From IMG/VR virus record IMGVR_UViG_2695420456_000026: 7,631 nucleotides of DNA; one strand, 5' to 3'. Of the stretch, positions 1 to 7,631 are shown in pieces. The position numbers were made by a program, and so were the translations under genes. This DNA is from a virus. Lineage: Duplodnaviria > Heunggongvirae > Uroviricota > Caudoviricetes. Position 1 is the first letter of the stretch. The number at the start of each line of letters is the position of its first letter. The notes below the pieces were generated by a model. It worked only from the letters and a program-made list of their open reading frames with translations, searched no databases and was not told where the DNA came from.

Positions 1-513
1 CTATGTCCTTGACGTCATAGCCGACTGGCCGATAAACCGGGTCGGCGAACTGCTCCCCTGGCGCGTAGCACTGCCGACTGAATAACACATCCCCGTCAAT
101 ACGGTTCTTGCTGCACGCTTACTTTTCTTCACGGTACAGATGCGGCGCATGGTGGATTCATCCGTCAGCATTCGCATGATTTCGGTGTTCAGTTCGGGGA
201 TAACGGTATAACCACCATCAGCGGGAACGCCTGTACTCAATGCGCGGGTTTCACCTGTCAGAATGTAGTGACGTAGTTCGGCGGGGTCAGTGGTCTGGCT
301 GTTTTTGCCTGGTTTACTGCGCTCTTCGTCAGCAACGGCCTCAAGGCGGGAGATGTCTTTATCGAGGGATTCAGCTTTAGCGCGTAATTCGTCAAATTTT
401 GCGCCCTCAGCATCGTTAAGGCTGCGGTTTTCTTTTTCCGCGTTCTCCAGCATGTCGCGCATCTGATTTTTAATGGCGGTTTTCTGCTGGCGTAATTCGA
501 TTATTCTCGGCAT
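1..513 (-). CDS. Capsid-like protein, about 170 aa. Residues 1-130 resemble the N-terminal part of HK97-family major capsid proteins (coiled-coil region followed by a ...LSTGVPADGGYTVIPELNTEIMRMLTDESTMRRI... block). The C-terminal 40 aa do not look capsid-like; possibly truncated or frameshifted.
   Basis: ATG at 513 (MPRIIELRQQ...) with AGGA about 8 nt upstream; the track ORF starts further up at a GTG (561). Stop TAG at 3..1. Family resemblance is from memory of HK97-type capsid N-termini, not a search. Confidence 0.45.
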   Translation of the reverse strand: MPRIIELRQQKTAIKNQMRDMLENAEKENRSLNDAEGAKFDELRAKAESLDKDISRLEAVADEERSKPGKNSQTTDPAELRHYILTGETRALSTGVPADGGYTVIPELNTEIMRMLTDESTMRRICTVKKSKRAARTVLTGMCYSVGSATRQGSSSPTRFIGQSAMTSRT

Positions 514-543
514 AAAAAAAGTCCTGAAGTTAAGTAAGGAACT

Positions 544-669
544 CCAGGACGCGGCAAACACTCAACCGTTTTTCATAAGGAAATCAGCAATCGCACCGAT
601 CGTTTTCCCGCCTGGTAATGAATATTGGCGGGCACATTAACAGGCGGGAAAGTGGCCCCAGCGTCCTGG
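544..669. promoter_or_regulatory. Nested inverted repeats in the intergenic region upstream of the capsid-like gene: CCAGGACGC (544-552) / GCGTCCTGG (661-669) enclosing TTTCCCGCCTG (604-614) / CAGGCGGGAAA (641-651).
   Basis: Repeats read directly from the sequence; function unknown (operator, structured leader or packaging-related site). Confidence 0.3.
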
Positions 670-2068: not shown

Positions 2069-2261
2069 CCTCTCACTTTTTCGCCTCACTTTTTCAAGCG
2101 TCTCACTTCGTCGCAGTTGGGATTTTCGGTTTTTCTATGTGTGTGTTTCATAAGTATTTTTTTACCCCTCACTTTTGAGGATGTATACAGGTCGAAAAGT
2201 GAGGGGGAGCGGGCTAATTTTGGCCCTCTTTCTATCCCCCTCGCTTTTGCTCCTCACTTTT
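2069..2261. repeat. Candidate replication origin: at least six direct copies of the iteron (C)CTCACTTTT (cores at about 2072, 2085, 2102, 2168, 2253, plus variant CTCGCTTTT at 2240), one inverted copy (AAAAGTGAGGGG at 2195-2206), and an AT-rich stretch (2120-2164).
   Basis: Repeats read directly from the sequence; CCCCTCACTTTT (2165-2176) and its inverted copy form a 12-bp inverted repeat with an 18-bp spacer; array begins at the stop codon of the helicase gene. Confidence 0.65.
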
Positions 2262-3660
2262 ATAGCGGCGCTACATCATCCCCATCGATACGAATAACCC
2301 CATCTTTTTCCAGCTTGTACAGCCAGCGCCGGAAGTTTTTCATTTCATACCCCAGCTTTTTCATGTCATCACGTAACATCTGGATCGTGCACTTGTCGCC
2401 GTTCTGTGTGCGTGAACGGATGCACCCCCATAGCGCGGTATGGTTTTCCGTCTTGTTCCCTGCCTCCTCGATGCGCTCCAGTTCAACAGGAGGGCGCGGA
2501 TCATCCACCACCACCAGCGACGTGATTAATTCACCGTCAGCGTCGGTAAAAAGCTCCACCACGCGTAAGTCATATGCGGCTTCTTTGAGTTCCTCCGCGT
2601 CCTTCATTTTGGTGCATGAGATAACCAGCGCTTCGCTTCCTGCGTCCTCCCTGCGTATCCGGTATTCAGCATCCAGCGAAGCACGAAATGCACTGGAACC
2701 GCGCGCGCCTTTCGTCTCATCCTTGCCGGAATGGTGAACCACCAGCACCGTGGCCCCTGTGCGTCGTTTCAGTTCGTCACAACCACGGATAAACGCCCCC
2801 ATATCACGGGAATCATTTTCATCATTCCCACCAAAGCAACGCGCCAGCGTATCCAGAATAATCATGCGTACAGGTTTACCCGTTTCCCGCTCCACCTGAC
2901 GGGCAGCGATAACCATTTCATCAACATCAAGCGGGGCAGCCGGAAAGATGGGGCGGTTTACCAGATACAGATTTTTCACCTGCTCATCGTGCACAACCTC
3001 CCAGGCTTTTACACGACGCGGAACACCTATACCGCCTTCACCAACCACATAGAGAACCGCACCATGTGCAACCCTGCGGCCTCCCCACTGGCGACCAGTG
3101 GCAACATGGCACGCCCACGATCCGGCAAGGAATGATTTATAGGACCCGCTAGCCCCGTATATGCTGCATAGCGATACCGCCGGAATAATCCCCTTAACCA
3201 CGTAATCCAGTTGCGTGTCGTATCCGGTAGATCCAACGCTCATCGGTAGCGTGGTTTTTCGCTGGTGGTTTTTTTCTTCCGCCGGCTCTTTCCCGCGCAC
3301 CCGTTCCAGGTATTCGCGCCAGTTCTCCCGCATATGGCTGTGCATCCCTTCGGGGTAATAATTCGCATCAGTTACGCCCGCCGCCGCCAGCTTGTGCGCA
3401 ATGGCATTAATATTTGATGGCCTGATGTGGCCTGCCTTGTACAGCCGGACACAATAGCGCCCCTCGTCGATGATTCTCAGGTCTGCCAGTTCATCCAGTT
3501 GATCATCAGCCAGCACAATGGGAGGCACATTATCGCCAGCCAGTCGCCCGTCCTGTTCCTGCCACTGTTTCGCATGTGCCCACGCATCACTACCCGCAAA
3601 AATGATGACTTCGGTCATCTTGTCGTAAGGCTGTTTTTTTAAGTTCGGTGCGCTTTTCAT
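2260..3660 (-). CDS. Replication protein, 466 aa: RepA-like / RecA-fold helicase (AAA_25-type) C-terminal domain with an N-terminal domain of uncertain identity (possibly Toprim-like).
   Basis: P-loop-like YGASGSYKS, VLYVVGEGG, Walker-B-like MIILDTLARCF, and LVVHHSGKDETKGARGSSAFRASLD in the same order as in RSF1010 RepA-type helicases; ATG at 3660 overlaps the upstream stop (ATGA). Confidence 0.8.
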   Translation of the reverse strand: MKSAPNLKKQPYDKMTEVIIFAGSDAWAHAKQWQEQDGRLAGDNVPPIVLADDQLDELADLRIIDEGRYCVRLYKAGHIRPSNINAIAHKLAAAGVTDANYYPEGMHSHMRENWREYLERVRGKEPAEEKNHQRKTTLPMSVGSTGYDTQLDYVVKGIIPAVSLCSIYGASGSYKSFLAGSWACHVATGRQWGGRRVAHGAVLYVVGEGGIGVPRRVKAWEVVHDEQVKNLYLVNRPIFPAAPLDVDEMVIAARQVERETGKPVRMIILDTLARCFGGNDENDSRDMGAFIRGCDELKRRTGATVLVVHHSGKDETKGARGSSAFRASLDAEYRIRREDAGSEALVISCTKMKDAEELKEAAYDLRVVELFTDADGELITSLVVVDDPRPPVELERIEEAGNKTENHTALWGCIRSRTQNGDKCTIQMLRDDMKKLGYEMKNFRRWLYKLEKDGVIRIDGDDVAPL

Positions 3661-4195: not shown

Positions 4196-4652
4196 GGCTT
4201 ACATCCTCAGGAAATTTTCTTCTATAACGCGCCTCTGCCACATATTCCGCATAATCGGCGGCGATATTCAGTACATCAAGCCCCGTTGATTTATATTCTC
4301 TCGTGGAAAGTAAGAAAAAAGCCGCTCTAATAAGTTCTGGCATTGACGAAAGCGCATCAGCCGCATCATCAGGAACGCCGGAAAATTCCTGTTTCAGGGA
4401 ATTAAAACGATCATCACGCATAACCCCCCCATTTTCACAATCAGCAATCAGGATAGCTTTGGCCTCATTCAGCGCCGTATCAGCACTAAATTGCATGACA
4501 GCCAGTGAGTGAGGAACGAAAGCACCGGCATATTCTGTTTCGCTGGTGGCGTGCTTATGTGCCCTGTCCGCGATAACAGAAATATCAATCAGCGCGTGCA
4601 TCAGCGTTTTGATGGCTTCGGCGGCTGCGTCCGGTGTGGTTTTATTGTGCAT
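4188..4652 (-). CDS. Hypothetical protein, 154 aa (MHNKTTPDAAAEAIKTLMHALIDISVIADRAHKH...).
   Basis: ATG at 4652 with SD GGGGA 7 nt upstream; 11-nt overlap with the preceding gene (ATGCACAATAA). Confidence 0.6.
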   Translation of the reverse strand: MHNKTTPDAAAEAIKTLMHALIDISVIADRAHKHATSETEYAGAFVPHSLAVMQFSADTALNEAKAILIADCENGGVMRDDRFNSLKQEFSGVPDDAADALSSMPELIRAAFFLLSTREYKSTGLDVLNIAADYAEYVAEARYRRKFPEDVSHA

Positions 4653-4854
4653 AAAGCATCCCCTGAATATTCGTGTTAATCATTCCGGCACGTTTTGTGA
4701 TTTCCTGTAATGATTCCCTTGTGGCGACAATTGCTTCATCTGGTAAGTGGTAATTACACACCACGCGACCTTTATCCACATTGACCAGTAGCTGCCCTGT
4801 GAATTTCTCACGAAACTGAATGCGGTTAAGGTCAGTAAGTGACAGATTAATCAT
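4642..4854 (-). CDS. Hypothetical protein, about 70 aa (MINLSLTDLNRIQFREKFTGQLLVNVDKGRVVCNYHLPDEAIV...).
   Basis: Preferred start is the ATG at 4854 with SD GGAGG 6 nt upstream; the longer track start at 4896 has no such support. Confidence 0.55.
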   Translation of the reverse strand: MINLSLTDLNRIQFREKFTGQLLVNVDKGRVVCNYHLPDEAIVATRESLQEITKRAGMINTNIQGMLYAQ

Positions 4855-5044
4855 GGCGCACCTCCTGACGAATACGGGCGGCAAATACAGCAACACAACC
4901 GGACGGGCAACGGTTACGCGCTTCGCGTTCCGTCCAGGCGGTTACGTGGATGATTTGAGATTCTCCGGCACTCAGTGCCAGAAAACGCCACACAAAGGCC
5001 GTTTGTGTGTGTACAAGGTGTGGTATATGATTTACGGCAACCAT
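4847..5044 (-). CDS. Small Cys/His-containing protein, 65 aa (MVAVNHIPHLVHTQTAFVWRF...RNRCPSGCVAVFAARIRQEVRHD); candidate first gene of the operon.
   Basis: It is the 3' end of the 314-aa track ORF, but only this part has a strong SD (AGGAG, 5-nt spacer) before an ATG (5044); stop TAA overlaps the next start by 8 nt (ATGATTAA). Confidence 0.45.
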   Translation of the reverse strand: MVAVNHIPHLVHTQTAFVWRFLALSAGESQIIHVTAWTEREARNRCPSGCVAVFAARIRQEVRHD

Positions 5045-5106
5045 AACGGCTCCTAGTTTACGTTGTTGGTTAGACGCCCCGTATGTGTTCCCAGCACTGC
5101 GGGGCG

Positions 5107-5177
5107 TTGATTTTTGTGTAATGGCAAGTACAATGGTAATTACCATGTAGGTATAGCAATAAAGGGTAATTACCATG
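5107..5177 (+). promoter_or_regulatory. Candidate sigma70 promoter (TTGATT 5107-5112, 16-bp spacer, TACAAT 5129-5134) with two operator-like copies of the perfect palindrome GGTAATTACC (5135-5144 and 5165-5174; shared 12-mer GGTAATTACCAT).
   Basis: Palindromes are 30 bp centre-to-centre; the first overlaps the -10/start region, the second ends at the RHH start codon. The divergent operon must also initiate in this 5045-5175 interval. Confidence 0.55.
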
Positions 5178-5348
5178 TCAACACCATTAGAAAAACGTTC
5201 GCCTCCATACCAAATGCGATTACCGGAAGACTTCAGAGCGCAGCTAGAAGAAGCAGCTAAGGCCGATGGCGACACATCTTTAGCCACTTGGATTAAACGC
5301 GTTCTCCGCAAAGAATTACAGCAACGCGGCATAGAACCCAAAGGATAA
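5175..5348 (+). CDS. Arc/MetJ-type ribbon-helix-helix DNA-binding protein, 57 aa (MSTPLEKRSPPYQMRLPEDFRAQLEEAAKADGDTSLATWIKRVLRKELQQRGIEPKG).
   Basis: Absent from the ORF track (under 60 aa); read by hand. The xRLPxEL...A...G.S.N..I pattern is typical of the Arc family; the palindromic operators overlap its own promoter and start. Confidence 0.7.
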   Translation: MSTPLEKRSPPYQMRLPEDFRAQLEEAAKADGDTSLATWIKRVLRKELQQRGIEPKG

Positions 5349-5405
5349 AAACTATCAGCGCCGTGGTGTGAGGTATTACGGCGCATTGCTATGCAGGACA
5401 ACACA

Positions 5406-5579
5406 ATGACCGATAAAGAATTGACCAAAACATTATCACCGGCACGGAAAAGACGGCGCAGAAAGATAGAGCATGAATCAGAAAGATTCGCGCCATGTGC
5501 TTTTGCCCTTGAGCAATTCCTTAAAGAGTACAGGGAAACGCGCCCATTGCAGGTATGGCAACGAACTGAACCAGACTGA
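5406..5579 (+). CDS. Possible small basic protein, 57 aa (MTDKELTKTLSPARKRRRRKIEHESERFAPCAFALEQFLKEYRETRPLQVWQRTEPD).
   Basis: ATG at 5406 with AGGA about 8 nt upstream (track ORF starts at the in-frame ATG 5391); lies between the RHH gene and the terminator on the same strand. No family recognised. Confidence 0.35.
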   Translation: MTDKELTKTLSPARKRRRRKIEHESERFAPCAFALEQFLKEYRETRPLQVWQRTEPD

Positions 5580-5673
5580 TAGCATTGCCCACCAGCCTGA
5601 TAGCGGCTATCATCCCCGTGCTTATGTTTGGGATCATATACACATAAGGCGCAGCGGGTTATCTGTTCAGAAA

Positions 5674-5702
5674 GGCGGCTCCATTTCGGGGCCGCTTTTT
5701 TT
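5674..5702 (+). terminator. Rho-independent terminator: GGCGGCTCC-ATTTC-GGGGCCGC followed by seven T.
   Basis: 8-bp GC-rich stem (one G-U pair), 5-nt loop, T-run 5696-5702; closes the plus-strand RHH cassette. Weaker in the opposite direction (only TTT). Confidence 0.75.
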
Positions 5703-5848
5703 ATGCCTGAAAAACCCCAATTTTGTGGTTTTCCAGTCTCACCAGGGCGAACGAATCCCCGCCCACGTTCTGGCGTATATTCAATCTTCATGGTTATAGC
5801 TCTGTGTTCAGATGATTGATGTGTGGCGGCTGTGTGCCGCCAGCGTGA

Positions 5849-6037
5849 TTAATGAACTGCCTTGCAGCTATCCTTCCAGGCCAGAACCTCGGATAAAAAC
5901 CAGCCAACGGAACGACCGCCAAGTTTACGACGTGATGGGAATTGTCCGGCCTTTTCCAGGCGGTAGCGACACGTACGGCTAAGGCCGGTTAGTTTTTCGC
6001 ATTCTTTTTCACGTATAAACCGATCAGTGCTTAACAC
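5849..6037 (-). CDS. alpA: AlpA-family phage regulatory protein (MerR-like HTH; Xis/Vis-like), 62 aa.
   Basis: ...ECEKLTGLSRTCRYRLEKAGQFPSRRKLGGRSVGWFLSEVLAW is the typical AlpA HTH block; GTG start at 6037 with AGGGGG 5 nt upstream; located just downstream of int. Confidence 0.85.
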   Translation of the reverse strand: MLSTDRFIREKECEKLTGLSRTCRYRLEKAGQFPSRRKLGGRSVGWFLSEVLAWKDSCKAVH

Positions 6038-6401: not shown

Positions 6402-7631
6402 TTATTTTCTTCTGGCTACTGGTAGCGTGGTTACGTTTTCATGTGTTCCCGCCAGTATCCCTAACCGCTCCGTCCACATATCCAGCGCATTGCGTTTCGC
6501 ATCCAGATAACGGGAATGATTATAAACTCGCTGCATTCCTGGCATCTGGTGGCCTGTAAGCTGCTCCACGACATGCGGATCAACGCCTAAATCGTTCAGC
6601 ATGGTTGTAAAGGTGCGCCGGATGTCATGCAGTGACCAGTGAGGGTGATTAAGCCTCCTGTGCGCTAATCTTCCATACTGCGATACGCTGGCCTCCTGTT
6701 TCACTTCCCCCAGCAATAAGCCCGTGTGCCTGTTCTGCTCCACCAGCTGCGTGATGAACGGCAGTATTGCTTCCGGTATAGGCCGGAATATGGCTACCTT
6801 CGTTTTGCTGTGCTCCTTCGGAACGGTCCAGAGCATTTCGGTAAAATCCCACTCGCTGATCTCCGATAACCTCAGTTCTACCGTCCGGCATCCGAACACA
6901 ATCAGGAGGCGGATTAACGCGATGTAGTAGGGGGAGAATATTTTTTTGTCCAGTGCCTGCAATAATTCGCCCAGTTCTTTGGTGCTTAAGACACGCTCGC
7001 TTATATCCGGTTTTTTCCCAACGTCCGCCACACTCATATCATCAAGAACGTTGCTGATTGCATAGCGCCGCCTCCGGCAGAACTTAAGCGCCTGTTTGCA
7101 CGTCTGTAGCAAGAATCCGGCAGTAACAGGCGTTCGCTTTGCCACCTGGTCAAAACAGGCCAGCCAGTGCCGTAGCTCGCATTTATCCAGCGGCATAGCA
7201 CCAATGTGCTGTATTACGTGATTATTAAGGCGCTTTTTCAGGGCGGCATAATCCACGCGGTTTTCCTTTGCGTACGACTCAAGCCAGTAGGTGAGCGCAT
7301 CGCCAACCGTTACCGGCTTTAACGCTTCCTGTACGGTGTAATTAAGCTCATGACGTGGATTTTTCCCCTCTGCCAGCCATGCGCGACACTGGGCGGCTTT
7401 TTCCCTGGCTGATTTCAGGCTCAGATCAGGATAATTTCCCAGCTTAATGCGTTCCGGTGGTGCCCCCCTTCCCGTTCCGGCCCTGTAAGTGAAATACCAG
7501 GTTAAAAGGCCACTGGTTGAATGCCTGACGCTCAGGTTTCCACCGTCATTAAGAAAGGCTGTTTTTTGGGCGGGTGTGCCGTTGATTTTCCTCAGCTGTG
7601 TATCGCTCAGTTTGTTAAGTGCTCTGCTCAT
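6402..7631 (-). CDS. int: Tyrosine recombinase, P4-family phage integrase with N-terminal arm-binding domain, 409 aa.
   Basis: N-terminal ...GNLSVRHSTSGLLTWYFTYR... arm-binding block; catalytic-domain residues in ...HDIRRTF... and ...VYNHSRYLD... (candidate Tyr). ATG is the last three bases of the window, so the true start or att site may lie beyond it. Confidence 0.9.
   Translation of the reverse strand: MSRALNKLSDTQLRKINGTPAQKTAFLNDGGNLSVRHSTSGLLTWYFTYRAGTGRGAPPERIKLGNYPDLSLKSAREKAAQCRAWLAEGKNPRHELNYTVQEALKPVTVGDALTYWLESYAKENRVDYAALKKRLNNHVIQHIGAMPLDKCELRHWLACFDQVAKRTPVTAGFLLQTCKQALKFCRRRRYAISNVLDDMSVADVGKKPDISERVLSTKELGELLQALDKKIFSPYYIALIRLLIVFGCRTVELRLSEISEWDFTEMLWTVPKEHSKTKVAIFRPIPEAILPFITQLVEQNRHTGLLLGEVKQEASVSQYGRLAHRRLNHPHWSLHDIRRTFTTMLNDLGVDPHVVEQLTGHQMPGMQRVYNHSRYLDAKRNALDMWTERLGILAGTHENVTTLPVARRK

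Follow-up and report, generated by a model that had tools for sequence, protein, structure and literature searches.

What keeps a phage satellite silent in the chromosome of its host? Phage-inducible chromosomal islands, or PICIs, are abundant satellites and carry genes for virulence and defence from one enterobacterium to another. In Gram-positive PICIs a master repressor is known, which is removed by a helper-phage protein; for Gram-negative PICIs the activator AlpA alone is known, and the founding paper left the existence of a repressor open. Here, we analyse a stretch of 7,631 nucleotides of Caudoviricetes DNA (IMG/VR record IMGVR_UViG_2695420456_000026; the window in the following), in which all called genes are oriented leftward with the exception of a small plus-strand cassette. 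This cassette consists of a promoter, palindromic repeats, a gene for a ribbon-helix-helix (RHH) protein, a second small open reading frame (ORF2), and a terminator. The cassette region, which lies between alpA and the replication operon, is probably the regulatory switch of the island, and judged from its sequence we favour, with moderate confidence, an immunity-like function.

The window matches an island of E. coli O55:H7 DEC5B (100% identity over the 801-nt stretch queried), which is about 11 kb long and lies between phoQ and roxA. The same allele is present at 99% identity or more in at least 314 complete genomes, mostly of O157:H7. The island EcCICFT073 of strain CFT073, the prototype among Gram-negative PICIs, occupies the same site and has a gene order identical to that of the window. 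Gram-negative PICIs are recognised by co-oriented int, alpA and replication genes, a size of about 10-15 kb, a dedicated attachment site, and the absence of lysis and tail genes; in the present island Int, AlpA and a RepA-type helicase were detected within about 11 kb at the phoQ/roxA site. It is an EcCICFT073-family PICI of E. coli O55:H7/O157:H7. Induction and transfer by helper phages have been demonstrated for EcCICFT073 (PMC6092414), a relative of the window's island.

The repressor gene

The first gene of the cassette (5175-5348, plus strand) encodes 57 residues behind the Shine-Dalgarno (SD) sequence AAGGG (5162-5166), with PPYQMRLP as the DNA-reading strand. A sequence-only reading of the window had taken it for an RHH gene of the Arc type, and comparison with other genomes supports this. 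The protein matches the PHROG family of Arc-like repressors (phrog_228, 1.5e-6), and its homologues form 93 clusters, nearly all of 56-58 residues, from Enterobacterales, Pasteurellaceae, Orbaceae, Aeromonas and Oceanimonas. Length, start and stop of the reading frame are kept in about 60 compared loci from many genera, which are, however, related elements, so that here and below the conservation counts are non-independent events and carry correspondingly less weight for our interpretation. In 60 loci of other species the gene is found at the same position and points away from the leftward operon, and as a rule the next gene is alpA and/or an integrase gene on the minus strand.

The AlphaFold2 model of the protein (pLDDT 78) contains helices at residues 18-31 and 36-50 and the turn D-G-D-T-S-L, which is of the G-x-S/T type. 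Nearly all of the top 50 Foldseek matches of this model are RHH proteins (AmrZ, NikR, CopA, Arc, CopG), the better ones with a root-mean-square deviation of about 1 Å over 36-38 residues, but the domain is small and all E-values are above 1, none being significant. Two further results speak against the assignment: the β-strand is not formed in the AlphaFold2 monomer, and the match to the Pfam family Arc (14.3 bits, E = 0.038) stays below the gathering score of 20.4. The match to NCBIfam YlcI_YnfO_N (0.0014) is also under the cut-off. From the comparative evidence, the reading frame probably encodes an Arc-type RHH protein.

Operators that covary with the repressor

Two copies of GGTAATTACC lie at the start of the RHH gene, and their centres are 30 bp apart, in agreement with the earlier description of two palindromes separated by three helical turns. 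The first, O1 (5133-5146, ATGGTAATTACCAT), is a perfect 14-bp palindrome around the core at 5135-5144, and the second, O2 (5163-5176, AGGGTAATTACCAT, core at 5165-5174), agrees with O1 in 13 of 14 positions. A degenerate third site, O3 (5121-5134, ATGGCAAGTACAAT), agrees in 11 of 14 positions (repeat family D1, 76%) and has clearer copies at its position in loci L004, L017 and L024. In the 7631-nt window GGTAATTACC is found exactly twice; allowing up to two mismatches there are 10 matches against 2.84 expected, a number reached in none of 200 shuffles. The order of elements is constant in the 60 loci of other species and reads hairpin, T-run, -35, partial site, -10, O1, AT-rich spacer, and O2 over the start codon.

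The sites do not only keep their places but also change together with the protein. Across about 35 loci, the palindrome's outer base pair and one residue of the predicted strand vary in concert. Most loci whose strand reads QYQ-M-RL carry the G-GTAATTAC-C site (that is, GGTAATTACC), and 9 of the 10 loci with QYQ-I/L-RL carry T-GTAATTAC-A (TGTAATTACA). The strand QFPMRL is accompanied by GGTATATACC in two loci, and PFQFRL by GTGTCATTACAC-like sites. Within E. coli the whole slot has exchangeable contents between conserved flanks. Allele B, whose protein is 45% identical (hhalign probability 99%), has AGGTGACCAC repeats arranged in the same geometry, allele C, another variant, has other repeats in that geometry, and a third kind of allele contains a YlcI/YnfO-type gene together with TGTCAGCCAC or GTGGGCCACAC repeats. 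The YlcI/YnfO-type proteins show a weak profile match to the RHH protein (E 0.0098, probability 4%).

The palindromes are probably the operators of the RHH protein because protein and site covary both across genera and among the E. coli alleles, and on these grounds we consider binding of the protein to the palindromes highly probable. Exchangeable slots that come with their own repeats are the pattern expected of heteroimmune repressor-operator pairs.

A further sequence, GGTAATTACA, at 4749-4758 inside the second leftward gene (4642-4896), is one mismatch away from the operator core. It could be a chance occurrence or a distal operator.

Two promoters face to face

The operators lie over two promoters, which like their start sites are predictions from sequence. 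The cassette promoter P_R (5107-5134, plus strand) had already been proposed, and it consists of the -35 box TTGATT (5107-5112), a 16-nt spacer and the -10 box TACAAT (5129-5134), with 9 of 12 matches and a predicted start at about 5141. Of 29 distinct loci, most have the pattern TTGnTT-16/18-TAnAAT, and in the same register. The second promoter, P_L (5153-5181, minus strand), points leftward toward the icd-like/replication operon and has the -35 box TTGACA (5181-5176), a 17-nt spacer, the -10 box TGCTAT (5158-5153), and a predicted start at about 5146. P_R and P_L are thus arranged face-to-face and overlap, with predicted starts about 5 bp apart. The operators had been placed in a divergent promoter region; they do lie over two opposed promoters, but these run toward each other.

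The operators fit both promoters. O3 occupies the spacer and the -10 of P_R, O1 abuts this -10 and spans the predicted start sites of both promoters, and O2 takes up the P_L spacer and overlaps the RHH gene's SD and ATG. The operator positions at P_R imply autoregulation, as had been suggested before, and we expect it with good confidence. In addition, with O2 in the spacer of P_L and O1 at its start, the RHH protein should repress the replication operon as well as itself. Gating of the leftward operon, which the sequence-only reading had offered as a possibility, thereby gains a conserved sigma-70 promoter as its candidate target, and we regard repression of this promoter as reasonably probable.

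The -35 box of P_L overlaps the start codon of the RHH gene, the reverse complement of ATG-TCA-A being TTGACA. Therefore, it has to be considered that the leftward promoter is a by-product of the start-codon context and the AT-rich spacer. The RHH protein would then be a self-regulating accessory regulator only, possibly acting on helper-phage or host genes, and the operon would be driven solely by AlpA from upstream. Coding for Met-Ser-Thr/Ile could indeed explain part of the conservation of TTGACA, which is present in 28 of the 29 distinct loci. However, the 17-nt spacer is likewise kept in 28 loci, and the -10 is usually of the TATnAT type across genera. The serine codon is TCA in 28 of the 29 loci, and TGTCAA persists even where the gene starts with TTG or GTG. 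In locus L021, P_L is the sole promoter-like site in the promoter scan (11/12). The YlcI-type alleles, including that of EcCICFT073, also have an operon-directed promoter, which is the only match of the scan (TTGACG-17-TAATAT in L003, TTGACG-18-TATAGT in EcCICFT073), and there the spacer holds one allele-specific repeat, with a second just past the -10.

Two points that favour an accessory regulator weigh at the same time against repression at P_L as the means of keeping the island silent. AlpA is necessary for induction of EcCICFT073, and its overexpression alone is sufficient (PMC6092414), so that repression by the cassette, if real, can be overridden. The -10 of P_L is poor in the window: it reads TGCTAT in the O157/O55 allele, with a G at the critical -11 position, while strain 2015C-3121 (L002 3154-3159) has TACTAT, and other genera have TATGAT or TATTAT. 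In the O157/O55 allele P_L may be weak or dead, and TGCTAT may represent a promoter-down change in the O157 lineage. Together with AlpA-driven transcription from upstream, an activating route demonstrated for the island family (PMC6092414), which could bypass the RHH-controlled promoter, this makes the term master repressor, used for the RHH protein before, an overstatement. Given the conserved spacing and the bracketed promoters of the other alleles, we consider a purely accessory role unlikely and continue with the immunity-like switch.

In CFT073 (L073 8715-8764) one GTGGGCCACACC repeat lies in the spacer of TTGACG-18-TATAGT, and a second one closely follows the -10. This promoter adjoins an opposite-strand YlcI/YnfO-type gene, whose protein has no significant similarity to the RHH protein. 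The CFT073 locus, as far as its sequence can tell, is of the same switch design as the window with a different protein.

A predicted antisense RNA

Upstream of the cassette, a hairpin had been described that overlaps the candidate -35. The hairpin is present (5073-5108, plus strand; -24.9 kcal/mol, z = -4.8) and is followed by a T-run at 5109-5117. However, only its 3' edge abuts or overlaps the -35 of P_R, and by its pattern of conservation it is no promoter element but the intrinsic terminator of a predicted antisense RNA encoded upstream on the plus strand. The predicted cis-antisense RNA is about 80 nt long (~5038-5117, plus strand) and has its own -10 (TGG-TATATG/TATGAT, 5021-5031) in addition to its own terminator. 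The cassette is therefore probably not the only plus-strand unit of the window, as had been thought, because a conserved small RNA gene is predicted just upstream of it. The RNA is predicted to fold into a closing helix P1, a hairpin P2 with the anti-SD sequence CUCCU in its loop, and the terminator hairpin followed by a U-run. Its sequence is fully complementary to that of the icd-like gene, which heads the leftward operon, at the SD (5050-5054) and the AUG (5044-5042).

Several lines of evidence point to an RNA on the plus strand. Compensatory changes are found in 8 of the 11 hairpin pairs, and at mismatches the plus strand has G.U and the minus strand A.C. Over the whole RNA 96.5% of the cells pair, compared to 38-48% in slid controls, and 15 of the 21 pairs show double (compensatory) changes, which was matched in none of 500 shuffles. 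A -10-like hexamer, often with an upstream TG, precedes the hairpin at a constant distance of 42-46 nt across genera despite differing leftward genes. A covariance model built from 23 loci recovers the RNA in held-out loci, mostly as a single match in the expected place and orientation; each of six Photorhabdus loci has two matches. The matches include EcCICFT073, the Pasteurella element Pmp8 and one element without any RHH cassette, and altogether the RNA is distributed over dozens of genera. The homologous hairpin of L003 was also called terminator-like. From these patterns we expect with good confidence that the antisense RNA exists.

Other identities of the hairpin region were considered. 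Rfam contains no family for the RNA, and no match to C4 or isrK was obtained in the whole window (E up to 1) or at 5000-5140 (E up to 10); an identity as C4, isrK or CI RNA was thus rejected. A leader structure of the leftward mRNA was rejected because the mismatches are A.C on the minus strand and the consensus energy is -14.5 kcal/mol there versus -22.8 kcal/mol on the plus strand. Pairing in trans of the 3' untranslated region of the cassette (5640-5652) with the hairpin (inverted repeat I10) was dropped, since the segments occur in the two transcripts in the same sense and so cannot pair. In the list of Hfq-bound small RNAs of O157 Sakai, SpLE1 is the only SpLE island labelled, the Sakai coordinates of the locus not being mapped.

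Another terminator-like hairpin, CACACAAACGGCCTTTGTGTG followed by GCGTTTTCT, is found on the minus strand at 4980-5009 (stem 5009-4989), some 35 nt into the coding sequence of the icd-like gene, and would be active only while that stretch is untranslated. A role as general attenuator was rejected because the hairpin is present in E. coli Icd-like alleles only and not in other genera.

The long minus-strand frame

The whole cassette lies antisense to a long minus-strand reading frame of 314 residues (4847-5791), which ends in the Icd-like domain. In this frame there is no stop codon from position 5848, the stop codon of alpA, to 4850, the stop of the Icd-like gene, corresponding to 333 codons. 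The frame shares its third codon positions with the RHH gene and with ORF2. When the two proteins were kept, their synonymous codons redrawn and the non-coding parts shuffled, the frame was open in 4 of 20,000 trials (~2e-4). All nine E. coli loci examined, with four repressor alleles among them, keep it open over 266-477 codons, and the counterpart in EcCICFT073 encodes 428 residues with a sub-threshold Bro-N remnant at the N-terminus. The 120-nt 'intergenic' stretch is free of stop codons in this frame in 17 of 28 distinct loci, while the other five frames are open in 0-4.

Because the minus frame is improbably open, and because the RefSeq annotation of O157/O55 genomes (NZ_CP038389.1, NZ_CP133130.1) contains neither the RHH gene nor ORF2 but opposite-strand calls over 5175-5579 (an 'Icd-like pseudogene' or a 247-aa 'hypothetical protein'), one might suppose that the minus-strand frame is the real gene and the plus-strand frames are spurious. 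However, the RHH frame keeps its length, start and stop throughout the compared loci while the minus frame is broken in about one third of them, the protein matches an independent Arc-like profile, its β-strand covaries with the palindromes, and PGAP calls plus-strand cassette genes in CFT073 and other strains. It is therefore hardly conceivable that the plus-strand genes are artefacts, and both strands may be coding.

In phage P4, translation of the long form of eta/kil suppresses termination, and a promoter is internal to eta (PMC10111431). In the window, P_L lies inside the long frame and the Icd-like reading frame is nested within it in the same frame, and we suspect an eta/kil-like nested arrangement. 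By this analogy it is possible, somewhat short of probable, that the long frame acts through its translation. Its interruptions argue the other way: about one third of the distinct loci have a stop codon of this frame within the RHH gene, and the hairpin is where the frame ends in L003 and L064, so that a translation-coupled step cannot be universal.

The second gene of the cassette

ORF2 (5406-5579, plus strand) encodes a basic protein of 57 residues with ATG 5406 as best start (SD AGGA at 5396-5399; ATG 5391 as alternative). It had been listed as a possible gene, and it is a real one: the protein matches phrog_21027 (3e-16), and its homologues differ by in-frame indels around the conserved core ESERFAPCAFALE. 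They form 38 clusters, of which every named one is from E. coli or Shigella. The strand-specific dN/dS of ORF2 is uninformative because overlapping third codon positions coincide and the E. coli copies differ too little. The cassette is closed by an intrinsic terminator, GGCGGCTCC-ATTTC-GGGGCCGC followed by seven T (5674-5702, plus strand; stem 5674-5695, T7 5696-5702), which is as strong as had been supposed (-21.7 kcal/mol, z = -6.1) and conserved in L002 and L003; the list of a simple terminator scan does not contain it.

A small RHH gene followed by a small basic reading frame and a common terminator resembles the gene order of toxin-antitoxin operons, and it had been asked whether the RHH protein is the antitoxin and ORF2 the toxin of a type II toxin-antitoxin or abortive-infection pair. 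Homologues of the RHH protein are labelled 'HicB antitoxin' in some databases, and the repressor of allele B is barely under the cut-off of Pfam HicB (20.4 bits vs 21). However, ORF2 is found in Escherichia and Shigella only, is missing beside the RHH gene in the 60 loci from other genera, and is paired just as well with YlcI/YnfO-type genes, accompanying whichever repressor allele is present. It is thus not co-inherited with the RHH gene and does not belong to a known toxin family. ORF2 has no match in Pfam, NCBIfam or PADLOC, the RHH protein none in PADLOC, and the structure model of ORF2 (pLDDT 68, two helices) has none in the PDB. In addition, the 57-residue RHH protein does not have a C-terminal extension of the kind that antitoxins use for toxin binding. 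A toxin-antitoxin or abortive-infection role is therefore unlikely, because ORF2 is confined to Escherichia/Shigella, unlinked to the RHH gene elsewhere, and without PADLOC, Pfam or structural matches; we rejected such a defence module on the linkage and the missing matches, and rate it as very improbable. By its distribution, ORF2 looks like an Escherichia-specific passenger.

Other genes of the window

To the right of the cassette and convergent with it lies alpA (5849-6037, minus strand; Pfam Phage_AlpA 6.7e-17), in the same reading frame as the long minus-strand frame, followed by int (6402-7631, minus strand). AlpA is the activator of the EcCICFT073 island family (PMC6092414). To the left, the operon is led by the Icd-like gene (4847-5044, minus strand), which encodes 65 residues beginning with MVAVNH (NCBIfam phage_ICD_like 6e-18; RefSeq WP_000226782.1) behind the SD AGGAG at 5054-5050 and is nested in the long frame. 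The RepA-type helicase gene (2260-3660, minus strand) is accompanied by further leftward genes, namely several small reading frames, a DUF4222 gene, ssb and a PerC-family gene, and a capsid gene on the minus strand starts at the left edge of the window. The island encodes its own major capsid, head-decoration genes and small terminase (window 1-561, minus strand; L001 3255-4310); a portal, protease or large terminase is not annotated.

Comparison with known systems

The combination of a small repressor, opposed promoters and an antisense RNA has precedents, none of which fits in all respects. The immI region of phage P22 contains the RHH repressors Arc and Mnt, the promoters Pant and Pmnt, and the sar antisense RNA. 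It shares with the window small RHH repressors on palindromic operators over closely spaced opposed promoters, and a short cis-antisense RNA over the ribosome site of the adjoining gene. However, the window has one RHH gene where P22 has two, the controlled genes would be the Icd-like gene and a replication/packaging operon instead of an antirepressor, and the protein has no significant sequence match to Arc (Pfam 0.038). The lysis-lysogeny switches of P2 and 186 also have face-to-face promoters with overlapping transcripts and repressor sites flanking the -10 of the lytic direction; yet their repressors are not of the RHH type, and the predicted starts in the window are only about 5 bp apart.

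In plasmid pMV158, the RHH repressor CopG and the cis-antisense RNAII, which acts at a translation-initiation region, control the head of the replication operon. The same dual control is predicted for the window, and accordingly the cassette could be a copy-number controller, which tunes the synthesis of replication proteins in the circular island instead of keeping it quiescent; the predicted antisense RNA does lie over a translation start at the head of an operon that encodes a RepA-type helicase. However, its target is the icd-like gene and not the initiator or any other replication gene. CopG is co-transcribed with repB, whereas the RHH gene is oriented oppositely and transcribed away from the operon. 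The element is integrated and needs silence rather than copy control, and its allele diversity resembles immunity types. Thus, copy-number control is an improbable explanation for the cassette.

Like the window, the Gram-positive PICIs with the repressors Stl (staphylococcal SaPI) and Rpr have a satellite repressor gene that points away from the operon proposed as silenced, and a high allelic diversity (PMC6092414). In contrast, the Stl proteins are larger helix-turn-helix repressors inactivated by helper-phage proteins, while Gram-negative PICIs are induced through AlpA. Satellite P4 (vis, PLL/PLE, eta/kil, CI RNA) has several features in common with the window: an AlpA/Vis homologue upstream, a long reading frame that starts upstream of an internal constitutive-type promoter and contains a shorter nested one in the same frame, a replication operon headed by an RNA immunity element (in the window a proposed one), and the location of both in the 'Bro zone' between integration and replication genes (PMC10111431). 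Here, too, there are differences. P4 immunity is based on the CI RNA alone, via transcription termination, whereas the window adds an opposite-strand repressor with allele-specific operators, and the predicted RNA of the window is a true cis-antisense RNA matching neither the C4 nor the isrK model of Rfam.

A possible mechanism

In an immunity-like switch, RHH dimers would bind O3/O1 and O2, and thereby restrain their own synthesis and close off the icd-like/replication/packaging operon at its internal promoter. This repression would keep the island quiescent in an allele-specific, immunity-like manner. Leaky leftward transcripts would be silenced by the antisense RNA of about 80 nt, which would pair with the icd-like ribosome-binding site. 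How the switch could be reversed is more speculative. On induction, a helper phage would raise AlpA, and transcription from the alpA promoter would cross the cassette in antisense direction. Translation of the long frame might protect this transcript from termination, as in P4 eta/kil, and unwind the antisense pairing, and the passage of the polymerase might interfere with RHH expression and flip the switch.

One can tentatively extend this proposal to a general design, which for the time being is a conjecture: Gram-negative PICIs, including EcCICFT073, might carry a three-layer immunity switch antisense within an eta-like gene. Its layers would be interchangeable RHH or YlcI/YnfO repressors with their own operators over face-to-face promoters, a cis-antisense RNA silencing the Icd-like gene, and a long frame whose ribosomes, following the AlpA-driven polymerase, could override both.

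Implications for PICI biology

In the PICI literature searched, the cassette is either passed over or appears as an accessory gene ('HicB' or 'YlcI/YnfO') and not as a regulator, and no link of an RHH protein to a satellite repressor was found in the literature searched. The cassette slot is also occupied in EcCICFT073, the experimental model, so that the proposed switch is directly testable there. The predicted antisense RNA would represent a new RNA family present in dozens of genera. If our interpretation is true, the cassette supplies the 'missing repressor' of the Gram-negative PICIs and explains the silence of the island, and heteroimmune allele classes are to be predicted. In a three-layer switch of the proposed kind, the functional overlap of antisense genes would be unusually extensive, and swaps of operators and repressors would give a direct handle for engineering PICI-based delivery vehicles.

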